NCBI GenBank assembly: GCA_964545165.1
Contig: CAZJEQ010000004.1
Coordinates: 17,716 to 81,715 of the forward strand
Source: an uncultured Candidatus Saccharibacteria bacterium
Lineage (GTDB): Bacteria > Patescibacteriota > Minisyncoccia > Phycocordibacterales > UBA2100
Direction: 5' to 3'
Length of the DNA stretch: 64,000 nucleotides
The notes under the pieces were generated by a model. It ran no database searches, was not told where the DNA came from, and saw only the letters and a program-made list of their open reading frames with translations. Below, piece by piece: positions 3,438 to 51,018 of this stretch; the stretch's first letter is position 1; every line of letters starts with the position of its first letter. Position numbers and translations under genes: made by a program.

Positions 3438-4199
3438 ATGGAAAGCGGCATTCAATCATCATTCATCCCACAAGACGCGGGGAAGGTCACCGTCTCACCC
3501 CGGCAGCCGAAAGGCGGTGGTCTCGGGGATTTAATGTTTTTGATTGCGATTGTGTTGTTTGTGGTCTCGATTGCGCTCGCGGGCGCTGTCTTTCTCTACA
3601 ATCAGTATCTCGGGACGAGCGTGACCTCAAAAGTCGAGCAGTTGAAGAGTGCGCGCGAAGCATTCGAGCCGGCACTCATTCAGCAGCTCACTCGTTTGGA
3701 TGATCGTATGCGCGCAGCGGACAGCGTGCTCTCGGTGCACATGGCACCGACGGCATTCTTTCTCGCACTCTCGCAAGTGACGCTCACCAACGTGTCCTTC
3801 CGAAGCATTGATCTTGATGCGAGCGACCCCAAGAAGATTACCGTCAAGATGCCGGGCGTTGCGCAGAGCGTGAATTCCATTGCGCTTCAAGCGGATCTCA
3901 TGAGCAAAAACGGCGTCGTCACGAATCCTATTTTCTCCAACATCTCACGACAAGCAGATGGGGTGCACTTCGACATGACGGCGCACATCAATCCTGCAGC
4001 AGTTAATTTCGTATCGCTCGTTGGTGCTGCCACTCGTGCACTCGCTCCGCAGCAGACTGAGGTATCAGGACAAGGCGTGTCGCCTTTTGAACAGCAAGCA
4101 GCAACGCCTGATGCAGCGACACAAACGCAGGCGCAAACACCGACACCGACGACCGAGACAGGGGATACTTCGGGTGCGAGCCCCTTCACCAATCAATAA
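3438..4199 (+). CDS. pilN: PilN-like pilus assembly protein (single TM, periplasmic domain, Thr/Pro-rich tail)
   Basis: N-terminal TM helix; position after pilM; coiled region. Confidence 0.7.
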   Translation: MESGIQSSFIPQDAGKVTVSPRQPKGGGLGDLMFLIAIVLFVVSIALAGAVFLYNQYLGTSVTSKVEQLKSAREAFEPALIQQLTRLDDRMRAADSVLSVHMAPTAFFLALSQVTLTNVSFRSIDLDASDPKKITVKMPGVAQSVNSIALQADLMSKNGVVTNPIFSNISRQADGVHFDMTAHINPAAVNFVSLVGAATRALAPQQTEVSGQGVSPFEQQAATPDAATQTQAQTPTPTTETGDTSGASPFTNQ

Positions 4200-10192: not shown

Positions 10193-10206
10193 ACTGATTC
10201 TCAATC

Positions 10207-10238
10207 ACGAAAAAGCGCCCCTCGCGGGGCGCTTTTTC
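10207..10238 (+). terminator. rho-independent terminator after the pilin gene
   Basis: AAAAAGCGCCCC-tcgc-GGGGCGCTTTTT. Confidence 0.6.
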
Positions 10239-10242
10239 GTGT

Positions 10243-19003: not shown

Positions 19004-19039
19004 AAGACAAAACACTCGCTTTCGCGAGTGTTTTGTCTT
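19004..19039 (+). terminator. strong terminator hairpin after the tRNA
   Basis: Perfect 16-bp palindrome AAGACAAAACACTCGC-tttc-GCGAGTGTTTTGTCTT. Confidence 0.6.
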
Positions 19040-22795: not shown

Positions 22796-22871
22796 TGGAG
22801 CCGCCTCGCAGATTTGAACTGCGGACCCCCGCTTTACGAAAGCGGTGCTCTACCAACTGAGCTAAGGCGGC
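22796..22871 (-). tRNA. tRNA-Thr (CGT)
   Basis: Reverse complement GCCGCCTTAGCTCAGTTGGTAGAGCACCGCTTTCGTAAAGCGGGGGTCCGCAGTTCAAATCTGCGAGGCGGCTCCA; CCA encoded. Confidence 0.85.
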
Positions 22872-22951: not shown

Positions 22952-23024
22952 GCCGATGTAGCTCAGTTGGTAGAGCACGTCATTGGTAATGACGAGGTCT
23001 CCGGTTCAATCCCGGACATCGGCT
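22952..23024 (+). tRNA. tRNA-Thr (GGT)
   Basis: GCCGATGTAGCTCAGTTGGTAGAGCACGTCATTGGTAATGACGAGGTCTCCGGTTCAATCCCGGACATCGGCT. Confidence 0.85.
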
Positions 23025-23074
23025 CAAAGAAGTGTGCTCTCGCGCGGCGCAGTCGTGCACCTTATACTGCTCGC

Positions 23075-23956
23075 ATGTCCCGCAAGGAAGAAGTCGAGGC
23101 AAAGATCGCAGCGATAGAGCTCGCCATGGGTGCGGCGGATTTTTGGAGTGACAAAGACAAGGCACAGACGACGCTCAAGGAATACCAAGATCTCAAGACG
23201 CAGCTCGCGAGTGGTACCGGGTACGACAAGAGCGATGCCATTCTTACCATTATTTCGGGCGCCGGGGGTGATGATGCCGAGGATTTCTCGCGCATTCTCT
23301 ACGAGATGTACCGCAAGTACGTCGCATCGAAGGGATGGAGTGCGAGCGATATTGATGAAAACAAAAACTCCATGGGCGGGTACCGCTCCGTCTCGTTTGA
23401 AATCAAGGGAAGCGGCGCCTATGGCACGCTCCGCCGTGAAGCAGGTGTGCATCGGCTCGTACGCATGTCACCGTTTAATGCTGCGGGCAAGCGCCAGACC
23501 TCGTTCTCGCTCGTCGAAGTGTTGCCCAAGGTACCGGATCAAGGAGATCTCCACATTCCCGATAGCGAACTCGATGTTGCAGTCGCGCGCTCGGGTGGTC
23601 CTGGCGGCCAAAACGTCAACAAGCGCGACACAGCGGTGCGCATGACGCACCTTCCGACCGGCATCGCCGTGCAGGTCACCTCGGAGCGCTCGCAGCTTTC
23701 CAACAAAGAGAAGGCGCTCGAGATGATTCGCGGCAAGCTCTTCAAGCTGCGTGAAGATGCTGCAGCGAACGAGGCGCGTGGTCTTTCTGCTGGTACGACC
23801 ACCAAGATCGAGTGGGGTAGTCAGATTCGCTCGTATGTCCTGCATCCCTATCAATTGGTGAAGGATCACCGCACTGAGCATGAGCGCCGCGATGTGGAGC
23901 GTGTCCTTGAGGGTGATATCCAGAGCTTTGTCGACGCAGAAAAGTCACTTGAATAG
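23075..23956 (+). CDS. prfB: peptide chain release factor 2, N-terminally short (293 aa)
   Basis: SPF tripeptide (RMSPFNAAG) and GGQ (SGGPGGQNVNK); aligns to E. coli RF2 from about residue 33 onward. Only 50 nt separate it from the upstream tRNA, so there is no room for the usual frameshift cassette. Confidence 0.8.
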   Translation: MSRKEEVEAKIAAIELAMGAADFWSDKDKAQTTLKEYQDLKTQLASGTGYDKSDAILTIISGAGGDDAEDFSRILYEMYRKYVASKGWSASDIDENKNSMGGYRSVSFEIKGSGAYGTLRREAGVHRLVRMSPFNAAGKRQTSFSLVEVLPKVPDQGDLHIPDSELDVAVARSGGPGGQNVNKRDTAVRMTHLPTGIAVQVTSERSQLSNKEKALEMIRGKLFKLREDAAANEARGLSAGTTTKIEWGSQIRSYVLHPYQLVKDHRTEHERRDVERVLEGDIQSFVDAEKSLE

Positions 23957-24086: not shown

Positions 24087-24770
24087 ATGATCTATTTTGA
24101 GAAAGTAACCAAAATTTACGCAGATGGAGGACCTGCGGCCGTAGCCGATGTCACGCTCGGCATTGATCCGGGCGAGTTCGTTTCGCTCGTGGGTCACTCG
24201 GGTGCCGGCAAGACCACGCTGCTCAAAATGCTCTTCGCTGAGACGTATCCGACCGAAGGCTCGGTCTTTTTCGGGTCACGGGATATTGCCGCACTCTCAC
24301 AAAAGGATCTGCTGCACATGCGCCGCAACATCGGTACCGTCTTCCAGGATTTCCGACTCTTGCCGACAAAAAATGTGTACGAAAATATTGCCTTTGCCCT
24401 TGAGGTAGCAGGGAAGAGCGATGAGGATATCCAGGCAGATGTGCCGCATGTGCTCGAGCTGGTGGGGCTCGCCGACAAAATCTGGAGTTTCCCGCGGCAG
24501 CTCTCCGGTGGTGAGCAGCAGCGCGTGGCGATTGCACGTGCCATCGTCAATCAGCCAGAGGTGCTCATTGCCGATGAGCCGACAGGCAATCTCGATCCCA
24601 TCAATGCGCACGACATCGTAGAGATTCTCAAGAAGATCAATGACCTCGGCACCACGGTGCTCCTGACTACACACAATAAGTCCGTCGTAGATTCTGTAGG
24701 ACGTCGTGTGGTGACGATGGATCAGGGGCGTGTGATTCGCGACGACAAGCAAGGTAAATACGTGCTCTAA
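24087..24770 (+). CDS. ftsE: cell division ABC ATPase FtsE
   Basis: Walker A GHSGAGKTT; LSGGEQQR signature; ~227 aa; followed by ftsX. Confidence 0.85.
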   Translation: MIYFEKVTKIYADGGPAAVADVTLGIDPGEFVSLVGHSGAGKTTLLKMLFAETYPTEGSVFFGSRDIAALSQKDLLHMRRNIGTVFQDFRLLPTKNVYENIAFALEVAGKSDEDIQADVPHVLELVGLADKIWSFPRQLSGGEQQRVAIARAIVNQPEVLIADEPTGNLDPINAHDIVEILKKINDLGTTVLLTTHNKSVVDSVGRRVVTMDQGRVIRDDKQGKYVL

Positions 24771-24799: not shown

Positions 24800-25729
24800 A
24801 TGGACTTCTGGACCACAAGCAAGCGAGTGATGCGATACGGTGTTGCCGGATTCGTGCGCAACGGCTTCGTCTCGCTGGCGGCGATTCTCATCATGACGAT
24901 CACACTCTTCGTGCTCGCCGGACTCACGATCGGGGGCGCTGCCCTCAATGCGACGCTGACGACGCTCACGCAGAAGGTAGATGTGAGCGTGTATTTCACC
25001 ACCACCGCATCAGAAAATAATATTCGCGAGATCGAGAGCCAGCTGAAGGCCTTGCCAGAAGTCGCGAGTGTGAATTACATCTCGCGCGAGGAAGCGCTGA
25101 CGGCGTTTCGTGAGCGACACAAGAACGATCAGCTGACGCTCCAGGCGCTCGATGAGCTTGGTGAGAATCCGCTGGGTGCCTCGCTCGAAATCCGTGCGAA
25201 AGAAACAAGCCAGTACGAATCAATCGCAACCTATCTCAACAATAAACAATCCGCTGGCGAAGGCGCTGGTGCCTCGATTGATAAGGTGAACTTCTTCCAG
25301 AACAAGACCGCGATTGATCGTCTGACCAATATCATCCAGACGTCGCAACGCCTCGGTATCGCGATCGCGGCGTTTATGATCCTCGCGTCGGTACTCATTT
25401 CATTCAACACTATTCGTCTCGCGATCTACACTTCACGTGATGAGATCGGAGTCATGAATCTCGTCGGTGCAGGGCACTGGTATGTGCGCGGACCCTTTAT
25501 GATCGCAGGTGTTCTCTACGGTGCGGTAGCAGGTGTCGTGGTCCTCCTGCTCCTCTACCCGGTCACGATCTGGTTGGGCCCTGGCTCTGAGCGATTTATC
25601 GGCTCGTTCAATGTCTTCAACTACTTCACGAGCTCGTTCCCGATGATGTTTTTGATTGTGATGGGATCGGGCATCGCCCTGGGGGCCCTGTCGAGCTATT
25701 TAGCTGTCCGCCGCTACCTCCGAATGTAG
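24800..25729 (+). CDS. ftsX: cell division permease FtsX
   Basis: FtsX topology: TM helix, periplasmic loop, three C-terminal TM helices; position after ftsE. Confidence 0.85.
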   Translation: MDFWTTSKRVMRYGVAGFVRNGFVSLAAILIMTITLFVLAGLTIGGAALNATLTTLTQKVDVSVYFTTTASENNIREIESQLKALPEVASVNYISREEALTAFRERHKNDQLTLQALDELGENPLGASLEIRAKETSQYESIATYLNNKQSAGEGAGASIDKVNFFQNKTAIDRLTNIIQTSQRLGIAIAAFMILASVLISFNTIRLAIYTSRDEIGVMNLVGAGHWYVRGPFMIAGVLYGAVAGVVVLLLLYPVTIWLGPGSERFIGSFNVFNYFTSSFPMMFLIVMGSGIALGALSSYLAVRRYLRM

Positions 25730-25732
25730 CGA

Positions 25733-25850
25733 ACCGCAGAAACGCAGGCATTTCGTCGTTGTGGGGCCCATCTCGGGCCTCACCGTACGCTTAGTACGGC
25801 TCAGCCCTCGATTTCCCCACGCCTAGAACTGCCTACGTTTCTGTGGCTCG
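25733..25850 (+). other. structured intergenic element (candidate ncRNA or cis-regulatory RNA) between ftsX and pyrG
   Basis: 15-bp long-range helix GCAGAAACGCAGGCA (25736-50) / TGCCTACGTTTCTGT (25830-44) encloses inner helix GTGGGG/CCCCAC and two hairpins (GGCCC-atctc-GGGCC; CCGTAC-gctta-GTACGG). Confidence 0.4.
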
Positions 25851-25868
25851 TGTTACAGTGCAGCCTAT

Positions 25869-27527
25869 ATGACGCGTGCGCAGTCATCTGGCCATAAATA
25901 TATTTTCGTCGTGGGCGGCGTAATGTCTGGCGTCGGCAAAGGCATCACTACCGCATCTATCGGTAAGATTCTTGCAGCCCGTGGCCTCAAGGTGAATTTG
26001 ATGAAGGTAGATCCGTATCTCAATGTCGATGCGGGCACCATGAATCCGACGGAGCATGGCGAAGTCTTCGTCCTCGACTCGGGTCTTGAGACCGATCAGG
26101 ACATGGGCAACTACGAGCGCTTCTTGGGCCGCGATCTGGGTCCGGAGGATTACATGACGAGCGGTATGGTCTACGCCGAGGTCATTCGTCGCGAGAGAAA
26201 TCTCGAATACGGCGGTAAGTGTGTGGAAGCGGTCCCGCATGTGCGCGATGAAATCGTGCAGCGTTTCCAAAAATCCGCTGAGCTCGCGCAGTCTGATGTG
26301 ACGGTTGTTGAAATCGGCGGCACCATCGGAGATTTCTCCAACGCGCTCTTCATCGACGCCGCTCGCGTGATGCACCTGCAGCATCCACAAGATTCGATTT
26401 TTGTGATGGTCTCGTACTTGCCGGTACCTGGCACCATCGGTGAGATGAAAACGAAGCCCACGCAAAACGCCATGCGCGATTTGAATGCCTACGGGGTACA
26501 GGCCGATATCTTGATTGCACGATCCACCCACCCGCTCGATCAGAAGCGCAAAGAGAAGCTCTCTGTCTCGTGCAATGTCCTGCCGGAGCGCATCATCTCA
26601 GCGCCGGATGTGGATTCGATCTACGATGTGCCCTTGAATTTCGAGCGCGACAAGCTTTCAGAGATAATACTCGATGCGCTCTCGATGGATGCGAACCGCA
26701 CCGCAGATCTCGGTGAGTGGAAACAGTTCGCCGAAAAAGCACACAACGGCTCAAAGGAGGTGAAAATCGGCATCGTCGGCAAATATTTTGATACGGGCGA
26801 TTTCGTCCTCTCCGATGCGTACATTTCCGTCATCGAAGCGATCAAATTCTCTGCGGCCGCACTCGGGGTCAAGGCAAAGATCGAGTGGCTCAACGCCAAG
26901 ACCTACCAGCAGGAGCCCGAGAAGGTGCATGAGCTCACCGGCTACGACGGCATTCTTGTTCCGGGCGGCTTTGGCGAAACCGGTATTGAAGGCAAGATTG
27001 CAGCGATCAAATTCGCTCGCGAGAACAAAATCCCATACTTCGGCCTCTGCTACGGCATGCAGCTGATGACGGTAGAGTATGCCCGCAATGTCGTGGGGCT
27101 ACAGGATGCCAACACCACCGAGATCAATCCCGAGACGCCGCATCCGATCATCGCGATTTTGCCGGAGCAGATCGAGAAGCTGAAAAACAAAGACTACGGC
27201 GGCACCATGCGTCTCGGTGCGTATCTGCACGACATCGAGCGCGACACCATCGCGTATGAGGCCTATGGCGGCAAGCTCCAGGTCTCTGAGCGTCACCGCC
27301 ATCGCTTTGAGGTAAATCCCGAATACATCGCGCAGCTCGAAGGTGCAGGGCTCGTCTTCTCAGGCAAATCTCCCGACAAGCATTTGATGGAAATTGCCGA
27401 GCTTCCAAAATCAGTGCATCCCTTTATGCTCGGCACCCAAGCACATCCGGAATTGAAGGCACGCCCGCTCGATCCACACCCGCTCTTCACTGCGTTCCTC
27501 AAAGCGGCGATTGAGCGCAACGGGTAG
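25869..27527 (+). CDS. pyrG: CTP synthase
   Basis: Full synthetase domain plus glutamine amidotransferase domain (GLCYGMQ, HRHRFEVN). Confidence 0.95.
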   Translation: MTRAQSSGHKYIFVVGGVMSGVGKGITTASIGKILAARGLKVNLMKVDPYLNVDAGTMNPTEHGEVFVLDSGLETDQDMGNYERFLGRDLGPEDYMTSGMVYAEVIRRERNLEYGGKCVEAVPHVRDEIVQRFQKSAELAQSDVTVVEIGGTIGDFSNALFIDAARVMHLQHPQDSIFVMVSYLPVPGTIGEMKTKPTQNAMRDLNAYGVQADILIARSTHPLDQKRKEKLSVSCNVLPERIISAPDVDSIYDVPLNFERDKLSEIILDALSMDANRTADLGEWKQFAEKAHNGSKEVKIGIVGKYFDTGDFVLSDAYISVIEAIKFSAAALGVKAKIEWLNAKTYQQEPEKVHELTGYDGILVPGGFGETGIEGKIAAIKFARENKIPYFGLCYGMQLMTVEYARNVVGLQDANTTEINPETPHPIIAILPEQIEKLKNKDYGGTMRLGAYLHDIERDTIAYEAYGGKLQVSERHRHRFEVNPEYIAQLEGAGLVFSGKSPDKHLMEIAELPKSVHPFMLGTQAHPELKARPLDPHPLFTAFLKAAIERNG

Positions 27528-27530
27528 GCC

Positions 27531-28262
27531 ATGCCGTTCAAGCTCATCTCGATTAATATCGAGTGTTCAAAGCATCTTGAGCGCGTCATCCCATTTCTGC
27601 AGCGTGAACAAGCGGATATAGTGTGTATCCAGGAATTAATGGAACGGGACGTTGCACAATTTGAATCGGCGCTCGGCACCCAGGCGTACTTCGAGCCCAA
27701 GACACAGATGCATGCAGGGGTAGAGGGCATGGGAATCTTTACAAAACATCGTGTTCTGTCTCGCGGGGCGCTCCTCTATGCGGGCGAGAGCGCACTGCGC
27801 AATTTTGATGAGACGAGTGCCACAACGAAGCATGCGACCCAGAGGCACCCGATACTTTTTTGTGATATCGAAGTCGATGGAAGGATCGTGCGCATATGCA
27901 CGACACATTTCACGTGGACACCAGATGGCCTGCCTGATGATTTGCAGCGCGCAGACATCGTGCGATTCTTGAGGGAGCTTTCTGCATTTCCCGAATTCAT
28001 ACTCTGTGGCGACTTCAACGCGCCACGCGGAGGAGAGATCTTCGCGCAGCTCGCGCGTGCGTATACAGACAACATTCCTCCACACTACCTGACCTCTATC
28101 GATGTAGCGCTTCATCGGGCGGGGAAAGAGCGCCCGCACGAGCTCGCCGACAAGATGGTGGATGGACTCTTTACGACGCCGGGGTACCGAGCATCGGATG
28201 TCGTCCTCGTCGACGGAGTAAGCGATCATATGGCGATTGTAGCTACTATCGACCAGGCTTGA
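27531..28262 (+). CDS. endonuclease/exonuclease/phosphatase (EEP) family protein
   Basis: EEP catalytic motifs (IVCIQE ... CGDFN ... SDH). Confidence 0.7.
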   Translation: MPFKLISINIECSKHLERVIPFLQREQADIVCIQELMERDVAQFESALGTQAYFEPKTQMHAGVEGMGIFTKHRVLSRGALLYAGESALRNFDETSATTKHATQRHPILFCDIEVDGRIVRICTTHFTWTPDGLPDDLQRADIVRFLRELSAFPEFILCGDFNAPRGGEIFAQLARAYTDNIPPHYLTSIDVALHRAGKERPHELADKMVDGLFTTPGYRASDVVLVDGVSDHMAIVATIDQA

Positions 28263-30877: not shown

Positions 30878-30948
30878 TGCGGGATCGTCTAATGGTAGGA
30901 CTACTGCCTCTGGAGCAGTGTATCTTGGTTCGAATCCAAGTCCCGCAG
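30878..30948 (+). tRNA. tRNA-Gln (CTG)
   Basis: TGCGGGATCGTCTAATGGTAGGACTACTGCCTCTGGAGCAGTGTATCTTGGTTCGAATCCAAGTCCCGCAG; U1-A72, G73 as in bacterial tRNA-Gln; CCA not encoded. Confidence 0.85.
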
Positions 30949-31118
30949 CAAAATGAGCTTCGCGAATTTTGCGAAGGGATTTGGATTCGAACGGGAAAGG
31001 GGTCGGGAAAACACCTTGTTTTCCCGTGGAGGAAGGTATGGGAAAACCGTGGGCGCCCCGAAGAAAGTACCCTTGGGGTGTTTCCCAGGGGTTCGCAGTC
31101 CAAGTCCCGCAGCAAAGT
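30949..31118 (+). other. structured 170-bp element ending in a partial direct repeat of the tRNA-Gln 3' end
   Basis: 31090-31118 GGTTCGCAGTCCAAGTCCCGCAGCAAAG versus the tRNA 3' end GGTTCGAATCCAAGTCCCGCAGCAAAA (18/18 identical core); internal helices GGGAAAACACC/GGTGTTTCCC, TTTTCCC/GGGAAAA, CTTCGC/GCGAAG. Confidence 0.4.
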
Positions 31119-35059: not shown

Positions 35060-35062
35060 TCA

Positions 35063-35098
35063 TAAAAAAACCGCTGCGACACGTAGCGGTTTTTTTAT
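35063..35098 (+). terminator. rho-independent terminator
   Basis: AAAAAAACCGCTGCG-acac-GTAGCGGTTTTTTTAT. Confidence 0.6.
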
Positions 35099-40225: not shown

Positions 40226-40240
40226 TCGCGCAAGCGAACC

Positions 40241-40272
40241 AAAACGCCCCGGCTCATGCCGGGGCGTTTTGG
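40241..40272 (+). terminator. rho-independent terminator
   Basis: AAAACGCCCCGGC-tcat-GCCGGGGCGTTTTGG. Confidence 0.6.
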
Positions 40273-40289
40273 TGATGCATAATAGGCGG

Positions 40290-50978: not shown

Positions 50979-51018
50979 CTTGCAGATATAAAAGTGCGAT
51001 CGCACTTTTATATCTGCA
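50979..51018. terminator. perfect 40-nt palindrome acting as a bidirectional terminator
   Basis: CTGCAGATATAAAAGTGCGA|TCGCACTTTTATATCTGCAG lying between convergent msrB and the ICMT gene. Confidence 0.6.

Follow-up and report, generated by a model that had tools for sequence, protein, structure and literature searches.

In the present study, we examined the gap between ftsX and the CTP synthase gene pyrG in a 64,000-nt stretch of DNA, called the window here, from an uncultured bacterium labelled Candidatus Saccharibacteria (contig CAZJEQ010000004.1, positions 17,716 to 81,715). The gap holds a real, conserved and structured element (25730-25850, minus strand, 121 nt), which is new within the broad kind of intergenic structured hairpin elements, and its selected fold is shown to lie on the strand antisense to ftsX and pyrG. 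The family to which it belongs is confined to Kaiserbacteria-like bacteria of the Candidate Phyla Radiation (CPR) and was previously undescribed. Judged from the sequences, we consider it about an even chance that the element is a strand-specific structured RNA module, not a pyrG leader. Its specific function is much less certain than this, and what is said of it below is a guess.

The spacer folds at -63.7 kcal/mol on the plus strand (z -6.6) and at -78.9 kcal/mol on the minus strand (z -9.2), and none of 200 dinucleotide shuffles folds as well. The minimum free energy (MFE), centroid and comparative structures agree on a single unbranched rod of about 45 pairs in the helices P1-P6. An earlier note on this DNA had drawn a four-way-junction-like fold, which these structures and the covariation contradict; the local GGCCC..GGGCC hairpin in that drawing is unconserved in relatives and competes with the covarying P5. 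The other pairings of the earlier note are real. Its long-range helix (25736-50 with 25830-44) is present, with one C.A mismatch and one G.T wobble on the plus strand, and extends to 25730/25850, and its GTGGGG/CCCCAC (25761-66/25815-20) and CCGTAC/GTACGG (25783-88/25794-99) helices pair as claimed. The minus strand, which folds better and is the one selected, was absent from that reading.

On the minus strand the rod opens with P1, an outer helix of about 16 bp that varies in sequence between genomes and pairs a 5' arm (25835-25850) with a 3' arm (25730-25745) lying directly 3', in the plus sense, of the ftsX stop TAG. Next comes a core in which P2 and P3 are separated by a 1x1 purine-purine loop and P3 and P4 by a 5x6 internal loop, and then P5 and the apical P6. 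The conserved 5' core AGGCAGUUCUAGGC (25821-25834) comprises the 5' strand of P2 (25830-25833), the G of the G.A 1x1 loop (25829), the P3 5' strand UUC (25826-25828) and the 5' side of the central loop, and the conserved 3' core AACGACGAAAUGCCU (25746-25760) supplies the 3' side of that loop, the P3 3' strand GAA and the P2 3' strand UGCC. In P4, GUGGGG (25815-25820) pairs with CCCCAC (25761-25766), and in the variable P5 the 5' strand (25803-25811) pairs with 25772-25779. The apical module (25780-25802) reads GA, GCCGUAC, a 5-nt loop (25789-25793), GUACGGU and GA. Among 12 homologous copies, GCA.UUC.AGGC is invariant in all, P6 is nearly invariant, with a symmetric GA/GA loop beside it and a conserved G.U pair that closes it (9/12), and the apical loop has 4-8 nt of variable sequence. 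P2 carries a U.G wobble in nine of the 12, where the window copy has G.C, and between P2 and P3 nine copies have G.A as the 1x1 loop and three have A.G. The core motifs can thus be written GCA-R-UUC-N-AGGC ... AACGANGAA-R-UGC and GA-GCCGUAC-loop-GUACGGU-GA. From their conservation, the invariant P2, P3 and P6 together with the internal loops appear to mark the functional core.

The pairing is strongly supported by comparison, for which the earlier note had already proposed an alignment of the spacers. In the alignment of 12 sequences and 45 pairs, standard pairs occupy 94.4% of the pair cells versus 74.9% after shuffling, and 28 of the 45 pairs have changed on both sides (110 cells). No covariation measure was reached in any of 500 shuffles, and when partner columns were slid by 1-3 positions the pairing fell to 33-41%. 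An independent run of RNAalifold on an unfitted MAFFT alignment found 25/45 compensatory pairs. Across the 12 sequences, P1 and P2 taken together as helix 1 have 16 of 20 pairs changed on both sides; four of the six pairs in P4 covary, and all eight in P5 vary, seven with changes on both sides and several as G.U. P1 (~16 bp) and P5 (8-11 bp) are therefore free in sequence.

The same alignment tells which strand is selected. The minus sense folds better in 9/10 members, by up to 26 kcal/mol, and read in this sense the pairs include 45 G.U versus 7 A.C cells (p 7e-8). The ratio is 27:7 after removal of two conserved wobble pairs, 13:3 in the ftsX-pyrG copies alone and 14:2 in the copies at a second locus beside rpoD. 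In addition, the 1x1 loop is G.A or A.G in all 12 members, a purine-purine covariation that on the opposite strand would read C.U or U.C. Unrelated spacers at this site tend slightly to the plus strand, which gives the better fold in 23/33 cases, as the positive GC skew would lead one to expect, and the minus bias is therefore specific to the element and opposed to the background. Selection on the antisense strand holds for RNA and for single-stranded DNA alike.

Relatives were taken from an FtsX scan with one genome per GTDB species, which gave 80 loci in metagenome-assembled genomes labelled Kaiserbacteria, Paceibacterota, Parcubacteria or 'Saccharibacteria' (54-84% identity). These labels identify the source of the window as a Kaiserbacteria-like CPR bacterium. 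In 76 of them ftsX is followed by pyrG, and the spacer length is bimodal, 0-22 nt in 36/76 loci and 42-399 nt in the remainder. Homologues were gathered by pattern scan and covariance model; of the 12 copies, 10 lie in the ftsX-pyrG spacer (one inverted) and the others beside rpoD. A clearly homologous rod occupies the same site in four GTDB loci (L007, L008, L036 and L055). An exact-pattern scan of Joint Genome Institute (JGI) metagenomes returned eight loci, seven of them genuine: L081 (the same as L055), L083, L084, L087 (the same as L088), L085 and L086; L082 was a chance match. The covariance model R1, built from nine sequences, scores the window element at 107.7 bits (E 6e-23) on the minus strand and 37.1 bits on the plus strand. 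It recovered the GTDB rods as well as the genuine pattern-scan members and added L044, the inverted copy, and it found no further copies in 618 kb of Kaiserbacteria DNA and no match in 727 kb of control viral loci. A phage origin was also considered and rejected: viral contigs scanned with a loose pattern yielded 93 chance matches, and of the 80 that were screened none fit R1.

At the second locus, in L085 and L086, rpoD stands on one side of the element and a convergent open reading frame (ORF) on the other, and a look-up of close RpoD homologues revealed the same arrangement in L186, L187 and L188; the remaining rpoD loci examined are without it. Reading on from rpoD, one meets a canonical bidirectional terminator, then the element and then the stop codon of the convergent gene. 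L186 and L008 both come from assembly CAYQQI, so that one genome has at least two copies, one per locus. These two copies are old paralogues since their P1 helices are unrelated, and the copies of L085 and L186 are orthologues since P1 is shared. In the folding sense, the L186 copy comes after an ORF with a promoter motif of the type seen at its neighbours and before a U-tract terminator; on this arrangement the structured strand is very probably transcribed at the rpoD locus as a 3' untranslated region (UTR). A link to the ORF that reads into the element was dropped, as the L085 ORF bears no relation to the L186 ORF and neither contains a Pfam domain.

Same-strand arrays of small hypothetical genes were also seen downstream of rpoD (L186 6240-9022, and L182, L189 and L190), each gene with its own intrinsic terminator and a promoter-like TGGCGAATC-N14-15-GCGTAGGAT 6-8 nt before the start codon. 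The gene content differs between close relatives, and the array is therefore a variable island. It was considered as an integron-like array and rejected, its spacers being ordinary terminators and the shared promoter motif with no attC-like rods.

Upstream of pyrG an extended -10 element TGTTACAGT (TGT TACAGT, 25851-25859, plus strand) is present, in which TACAGT (25854-25859) ends 9 nt before the ATG, not 12 nt as the earlier note had counted, and is preceded by the TGT that completes the extended -10. The window junction reads TGT-TACAGT-N9-ATG, and that of empty relatives TGA-TACAGT-N7-ATG, where the ftsX stop gives the TG and the ATG follows 6-10 nt on. A TGnTAnnnT motif 5-10 nt before the pyrG ATG occurs in 25/66 loci versus 0.7 expected from shuffles. 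An overlap of the TGA stop with the promoter (TGA-TAnAnT, leaderless pyrG) was noted in L003, L010, L031, L033, L042, L065 and others. A top-strand pyrG start is predicted near 25866, by which the mRNA would be leaderless or nearly so. Because the extended -10 lies downstream of the rod, pyrG mRNA from this promoter cannot contain the hairpin, and a nucleotide-sensing leader thereby loses its basis. In five lineages (the window, L055, L083, L084 and L087) the rod exactly fills the space from stop codon to TGN, starting 0-4 nt past the ftsX stop and ending 3 nt short of the pyrG -10.

How an RNA could arise here may be proposed as follows. Bidirectional bacterial promoters were reportedly described by Warman et al. 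2021. At such promoters the divergent starts obey an 18-bp rule (PMC10268837). Applied to TACAGT, this rule would place a bottom-strand start at about 25848, a T at top-strand -18, at the foot of P1. The active form would most probably be RNA. In the window, the near-symmetric pyrG -10 would give rise to a short divergent or antisense transcript that begins with the element; at the rpoD locus, a convergent mRNA would have the element as its 3' UTR and end at the canonical terminator. The element would most likely act as a self-contained module that offers its invariant internal loops and apical hairpin to a putative protein partner, with P1 and P5 as mere struts or spacers. P1-P3 form a near-perfect duplex of about 23 bp, which would also be a substrate of RNase III; CPR genomes have kept few RNases, and this is one of them (PMC12641178). 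We also suggest, tentatively and as rather unlikely, that the rod is the RNA or folded-strand part of an as yet undescribed CPR-specific system, either a small ribonucleoprotein scaffold or a new kind of spreading hairpin recognised by its structure. As a scaffold, it may bind a dedicated protein, with the contacts made by the T-loop-like central loop GUUCNAGGC, which is invariant, and by the apical hairpin with its GA flanks; as a spreading hairpin, it may pass between Kaiserbacteria and home to overlaps of stop codon and leaderless promoter.

Several points weigh against an RNA module. Folded single-stranded DNA would give the same G.T/A.C asymmetry, and the pairing of P2, P3 and P6 rests on prediction because their sequences never vary. 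At the ftsX-pyrG locus, a minus-strand RNA has no promoter or terminator of its own that could be recognised, and the rods of L007, L008 and L036 stand 65 nt from the pyrG -10. In L044 (3963-4082; pyrG ATG at 4062) the copy is inverted relative to all other ftsX-pyrG copies and the pyrG AUG is buried in P2: it belongs to the conserved GAAAUGCG, and the six codons that follow it make up the P1 3' arm. This locus is without the usual TGnTAnAnT promoter and has a TAGTAT hexamer 26 nt upstream of the rod. Furthermore, the patchy spread, the remnants (L012, L068), the half-copies (L007, L008, L036, L011) and a recent gain in the window lineage with clean stop-codon/TGN junctions are equally typical of mobile DNA.

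The main rival, which we hold to be unlikely, follows from these last points. It takes the element for non-autonomous palindromic DNA spread by mobility or recombination, in the manner of a miniature inverted-repeat transposable element (MITE), a REPIN or attC, in which a folded single strand would be recognised by an enzyme acting in trans and inserted at stop-codon/promoter junctions, with RNA as a by-product. The one-strand preference suits single-stranded DNA hairpins as well, and the inverted L044 copy and the second locus at rpoD speak for it. So does the distribution. On a neighbour-joining tree of FtsX and PyrG the element appears in at least five separate places beside empty or otherwise filled sites, with filled, empty and rearranged sites among relatives such as L087, L065 and L068, and its similarity is uncorrelated with that of the hosts (rho 0.25). 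Internally deleted remnants and extra half-copies are found as well: L012 retains only the P1 foot and L011 only a downstream half-copy, the same one that follows the full element in L007, L008 and L036. In the spacers of L039 (252 nt) and L068 (138 nt) a rearranged element was seen that keeps the folding-sense 5' half GUGCAAUUUGAAGUAUGGGGAGAGC and has its 3' half replaced; R1 does not detect this version. The L001 spacer was considered as a further remnant and discarded, the alignment being unconvincing.

The nearest relatives of the window by FtsX identity (L194 93%, L195/L196 89%, L197 85%, L001 84%) are all without the element, the four nearest among them, and have in common a different spacer of 60-75 nt; the window lineage therefore gained the element after its split from L194. 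The old spacer was replaced cleanly, from stop codon to TGN. Filled sites read stop-element-TGN versus TGA at empty ones, which is compatible with a 3-bp duplication, and the terminal P1 is the most variable part; the TGN flank may be a decayed TGA duplication or the product of selection alone. Identity of ftsX to L194 falls from ~85% to 74% over the last 180 nt, with no better match of this end to any element-bearing lineage, and import of flanking DNA together with the element was rejected for lack of such a donor. The gain could be due to short-patch recombination after DNA uptake or to some insertion mechanism. Long palindromes are prone to deletion, which would explain frequent loss. Judged by its distribution, the element is dispensable and its turnover fast.

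Copy number and sequence, on the other hand, speak against mobility. When the covariance model is run over the 64-kb window with its filters off, exactly one copy emerges, and the next matches (at most 16 bits) are ordinary terminator hairpins; a repeat hunt in the window by pattern search, inverted-repeat scan and the model with and without filters likewise gave one copy, and the other inverted repeats are not rods. No extra copy was found in ~140 kb of DNA from genomes that carry the element, nor in the sequence flanking 11 member loci, and in the window and this further DNA the many copies by which a REP, REPIN or MITE is recognised were not found. The paralogues of assembly CAYQQI are old, as their unrelated P1 helices show. 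Conservation is lowest at the termini (P1), opposite to transposon inverted repeats, and no transposase, integrase or reverse transcriptase adjoins any copy. Going by the GC skew of the window, the lagging-strand template is not the strand that folds. The clean spacer swap would also fit short-patch homologous recombination without mobility of the element, yet no donor flank was detected.

A third explanation, quite improbable in our view, is that the element works in the plus sense at the 3' end of the ftsEX transcript, as a terminator lacking a U-tract, an RNase III processing site or an insulator that would keep ftsEX read-through away from the pyrG promoter. It is certainly transcribed in this sense, since no terminator precedes it, and the plus sense still folds at about -63 kcal/mol; the tight fit between ftsX stop and pyrG -10 in the five lineages and the unrelated small hairpins of other relatives at the same place agree with such a role. 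The G.U excess and the purine-purine loops nevertheless favour the other strand, and termination needs no invariant internal loops. A terminator scan finds none at 25730-25868, and the remark of the earlier note that an element with no U-tract is not a simple terminator holds; the genome's own terminators carry clear U-tracts. At rpoD the element follows a canonical terminator and a second one would be superfluous, and the 36/76 relatives with the shortest spacers have no room for any hairpin.

As a protein-binding DNA element, another suggestion of the earlier note, the element could be an operator or a cruciform recognised as duplex DNA upstream of the pyrG promoter, and we regard this as very improbable. 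An invariant CCGTAC-N5-GTACGG inverted repeat and a TTTCCCCACG motif about 31 nt upstream of the -10 would suit it, and a similar TTTCCCCACG motif stands at the same distance in L011, L012 and L007, outside any hairpin. It is disfavoured because compensatory changes keep the variable helices P1 and P5 with a strand-specific G.U bias, which serves no duplex recognition, and at rpoD the element stands apart from any promoter. Finally, the nucleotide-sensing leader (riboswitch or attenuator) of pyrG that the earlier note had in mind adjoins the right gene, and in L044 the folding sense does lie in the pyrG 5' region with P2 sequestering the start codon, but we find it scarcely credible, as a conserved promoter separates the element from the ATG, the folding strand is antisense in 9/10 ftsX-pyrG copies, most relatives including the four nearest are without the element and about half have spacers of 0-22 nt, copies occur at rpoD, and the element has neither a terminator nor an expression platform and matches no PyrR or pyrG-type leader in Rfam. 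The small RNA, which the earlier note also named, agrees with what was observed and is at present the best reading; its expression is a prediction.

To our knowledge, very few CPR-specific RNA families are known, and we know of no experimental small RNA biology for Kaiserbacteria. A covariation-backed, strand-defined motif with invariant non-Watson-Crick features is thus a handle for mining metatranscriptomes and for the discovery of RNA-binding partners. The locus is also a case of extreme genome compaction, in which the ftsX stop doubles as the TG of a leaderless pyrG extended -10 and a 121-nt palindrome can enter or leave the junction without breaking the stop or the promoter signal. For annotation, a hairpin upstream of pyrG need not be a nucleotide-sensing leader.

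The G+C content of the window is ~55%, and the genes around the element all lie on the plus strand: prfB (22967-23956), ftsE (24087-24770), ftsX (24800-25729; 309 aa; Pfam FtsX_ECD and FtsX), which abuts the element, pyrG (25869-27527; 552 aa; Pfam CTP_synth_N and GATase), a gene of the endonuclease/exonuclease/phosphatase (EEP) family (27531-28262) and an IMPDH-family gene. The ftsX-pyrG gap is 139 nt; the ftsX stop codon is TAG 25727-25729, and the P1 3' arm begins at the next base. The conserved AUG of the element opens a 41-codon ORF antisense to the ftsX 3' end (25626-25751, minus strand); other members have not kept this ORF (10 codons with a GUG start in L055), and it is therefore probably not a gene. 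Unrelated long hairpins were seen in the same spacer of L022, L024, L029 and L030 (~160-170-nt spacers), L078, L079 and L028, one with a 22-bp stem AATCCCTCCCCAATTTAGTATCC and another of repeated ATTTGAATCC modules; the ftsX-pyrG junction seems to be a hotspot that tolerates palindromic inserts.

Other features of the window were recorded. Compared with L194, the last ~600 nt of pyrG and the entire EEP-family gene (26900-28262) have only 30-65% identity versus 80-90% nucleotide identity elsewhere, which suggests that this segment was replaced or is diverging fast. Just 5' of prfB, two divergent tRNA-Thr genes (22796-22871, minus, and 22952-23025, plus; anticodons CGT and GGT) make an 80-nt inverted repeat, 70% complementary. 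A 27-nt inverted duplicate (30966-30992) of 30928-30954, the 3' end of tRNA-Gln (30878-30949), lies 11 nt past the tRNA and could form a hairpin with the tRNA 3' half or be an integration scar. Perfect or near-perfect palindromes between A and T runs are present at 50981-51018, 297-331, 10206-10241, 19004-19039, 35062-35098 and 40238-40273; the first, the only one inspected, sits between convergent ORFs. They are typical bidirectional intrinsic terminators, and the genome of the window therefore does use U-tract terminators.

Among known families, Rfam 15, whose scan the earlier note had proposed, gave no family match on either strand (cmscan to E=10 on the element, 800 nt around it and eight member loci), with only sub-threshold hairpin matches of the microRNA-precursor type and none to PyrR, a pyrG-type leader, 6S or signal recognition particle (SRP) RNA. 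A search of the literature on hairpins, small RNAs, 6S RNA and leaderless mRNAs of CPR bacteria and Kaiserbacteria turned up no such element. Resemblances seen by eye to 5S rRNA, 16S rRNA, group II intron domain V and hairpin-ribozyme loop A were rejected, as no model matched.

Like the element, the extragenic palindromes REP/REPIN, ERIC, Correia/NEMIS, RUP and BOX are imperfect palindromes of ~100-150 nt in short gaps by gene ends; they are patchy, occur in either orientation, leave remnants, may adjoin or carry promoter elements and form RNase III-type duplexes on transcription. They differ in having tens to hundreds of near-identical copies per genome, where the element has one or two old diverged ones, and conserved ends or REP units, where the element has its most variable part in the outer helix and its invariant parts in the internal loops and apex. 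The element also has, unlike them, a clear one-strand G.U bias and no RAYT or transposase nearby. Integron attC sites share with it structure kept over sequence, an imperfect palindrome (57-141 nt), one folded strand and a place directly after ORFs; their outer R''/R' core sites (RYYYAAC / GTTRRRY) are conserved and the interior variable, the reverse of the element, and among the neighbours at the ftsX-pyrG site (prfB, ftsE, ftsX, pyrG, EEP- and IMPDH-family genes) there is no integrase or cassette array.

The pyrG leader attenuators, among them the reiterative-transcription leader of Bacillus and Lactococcus and the leaders that bind PyrR, also lie immediately upstream of the CTP synthase gene. 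They are 5' UTRs, whereas the element is upstream of the promoter and on the antisense strand, has no U-tract terminator and occurs away from pyrG too. With divergent noncoding RNAs from a symmetric -10, the element has in common the predicted start at the P1 foot, P1 being 3 nt from the -10 in five lineages; those RNAs are normally unstructured by-products, and the element is a conserved covarying rod that in three lineages lies 65 nt from the -10.

The 6S, SRP 4.5S and Y RNAs were compared last. 6S RNA (~180 nt) has a large central bubble mimicking an open promoter, where the 121-nt element has 5x6 as its largest internal loop; SRP RNA has a GNRA apical tetraloop and domain IV loops, where the element has a variable apical loop of 4-8 nt; and the bulged Ro-binding helix of Y RNA is not present in the element, which is also, unlike all three, dispensable, with nearest relatives lacking it. 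In common with these RNAs, the element is a single long hairpin with covarying closing and distal helices, with conservation at the mid and apical internal loops and with one or two paralogues per genome. The secondary structure backed by covariation, by which structured noncoding RNAs are generally recognised, is likewise found in the element.

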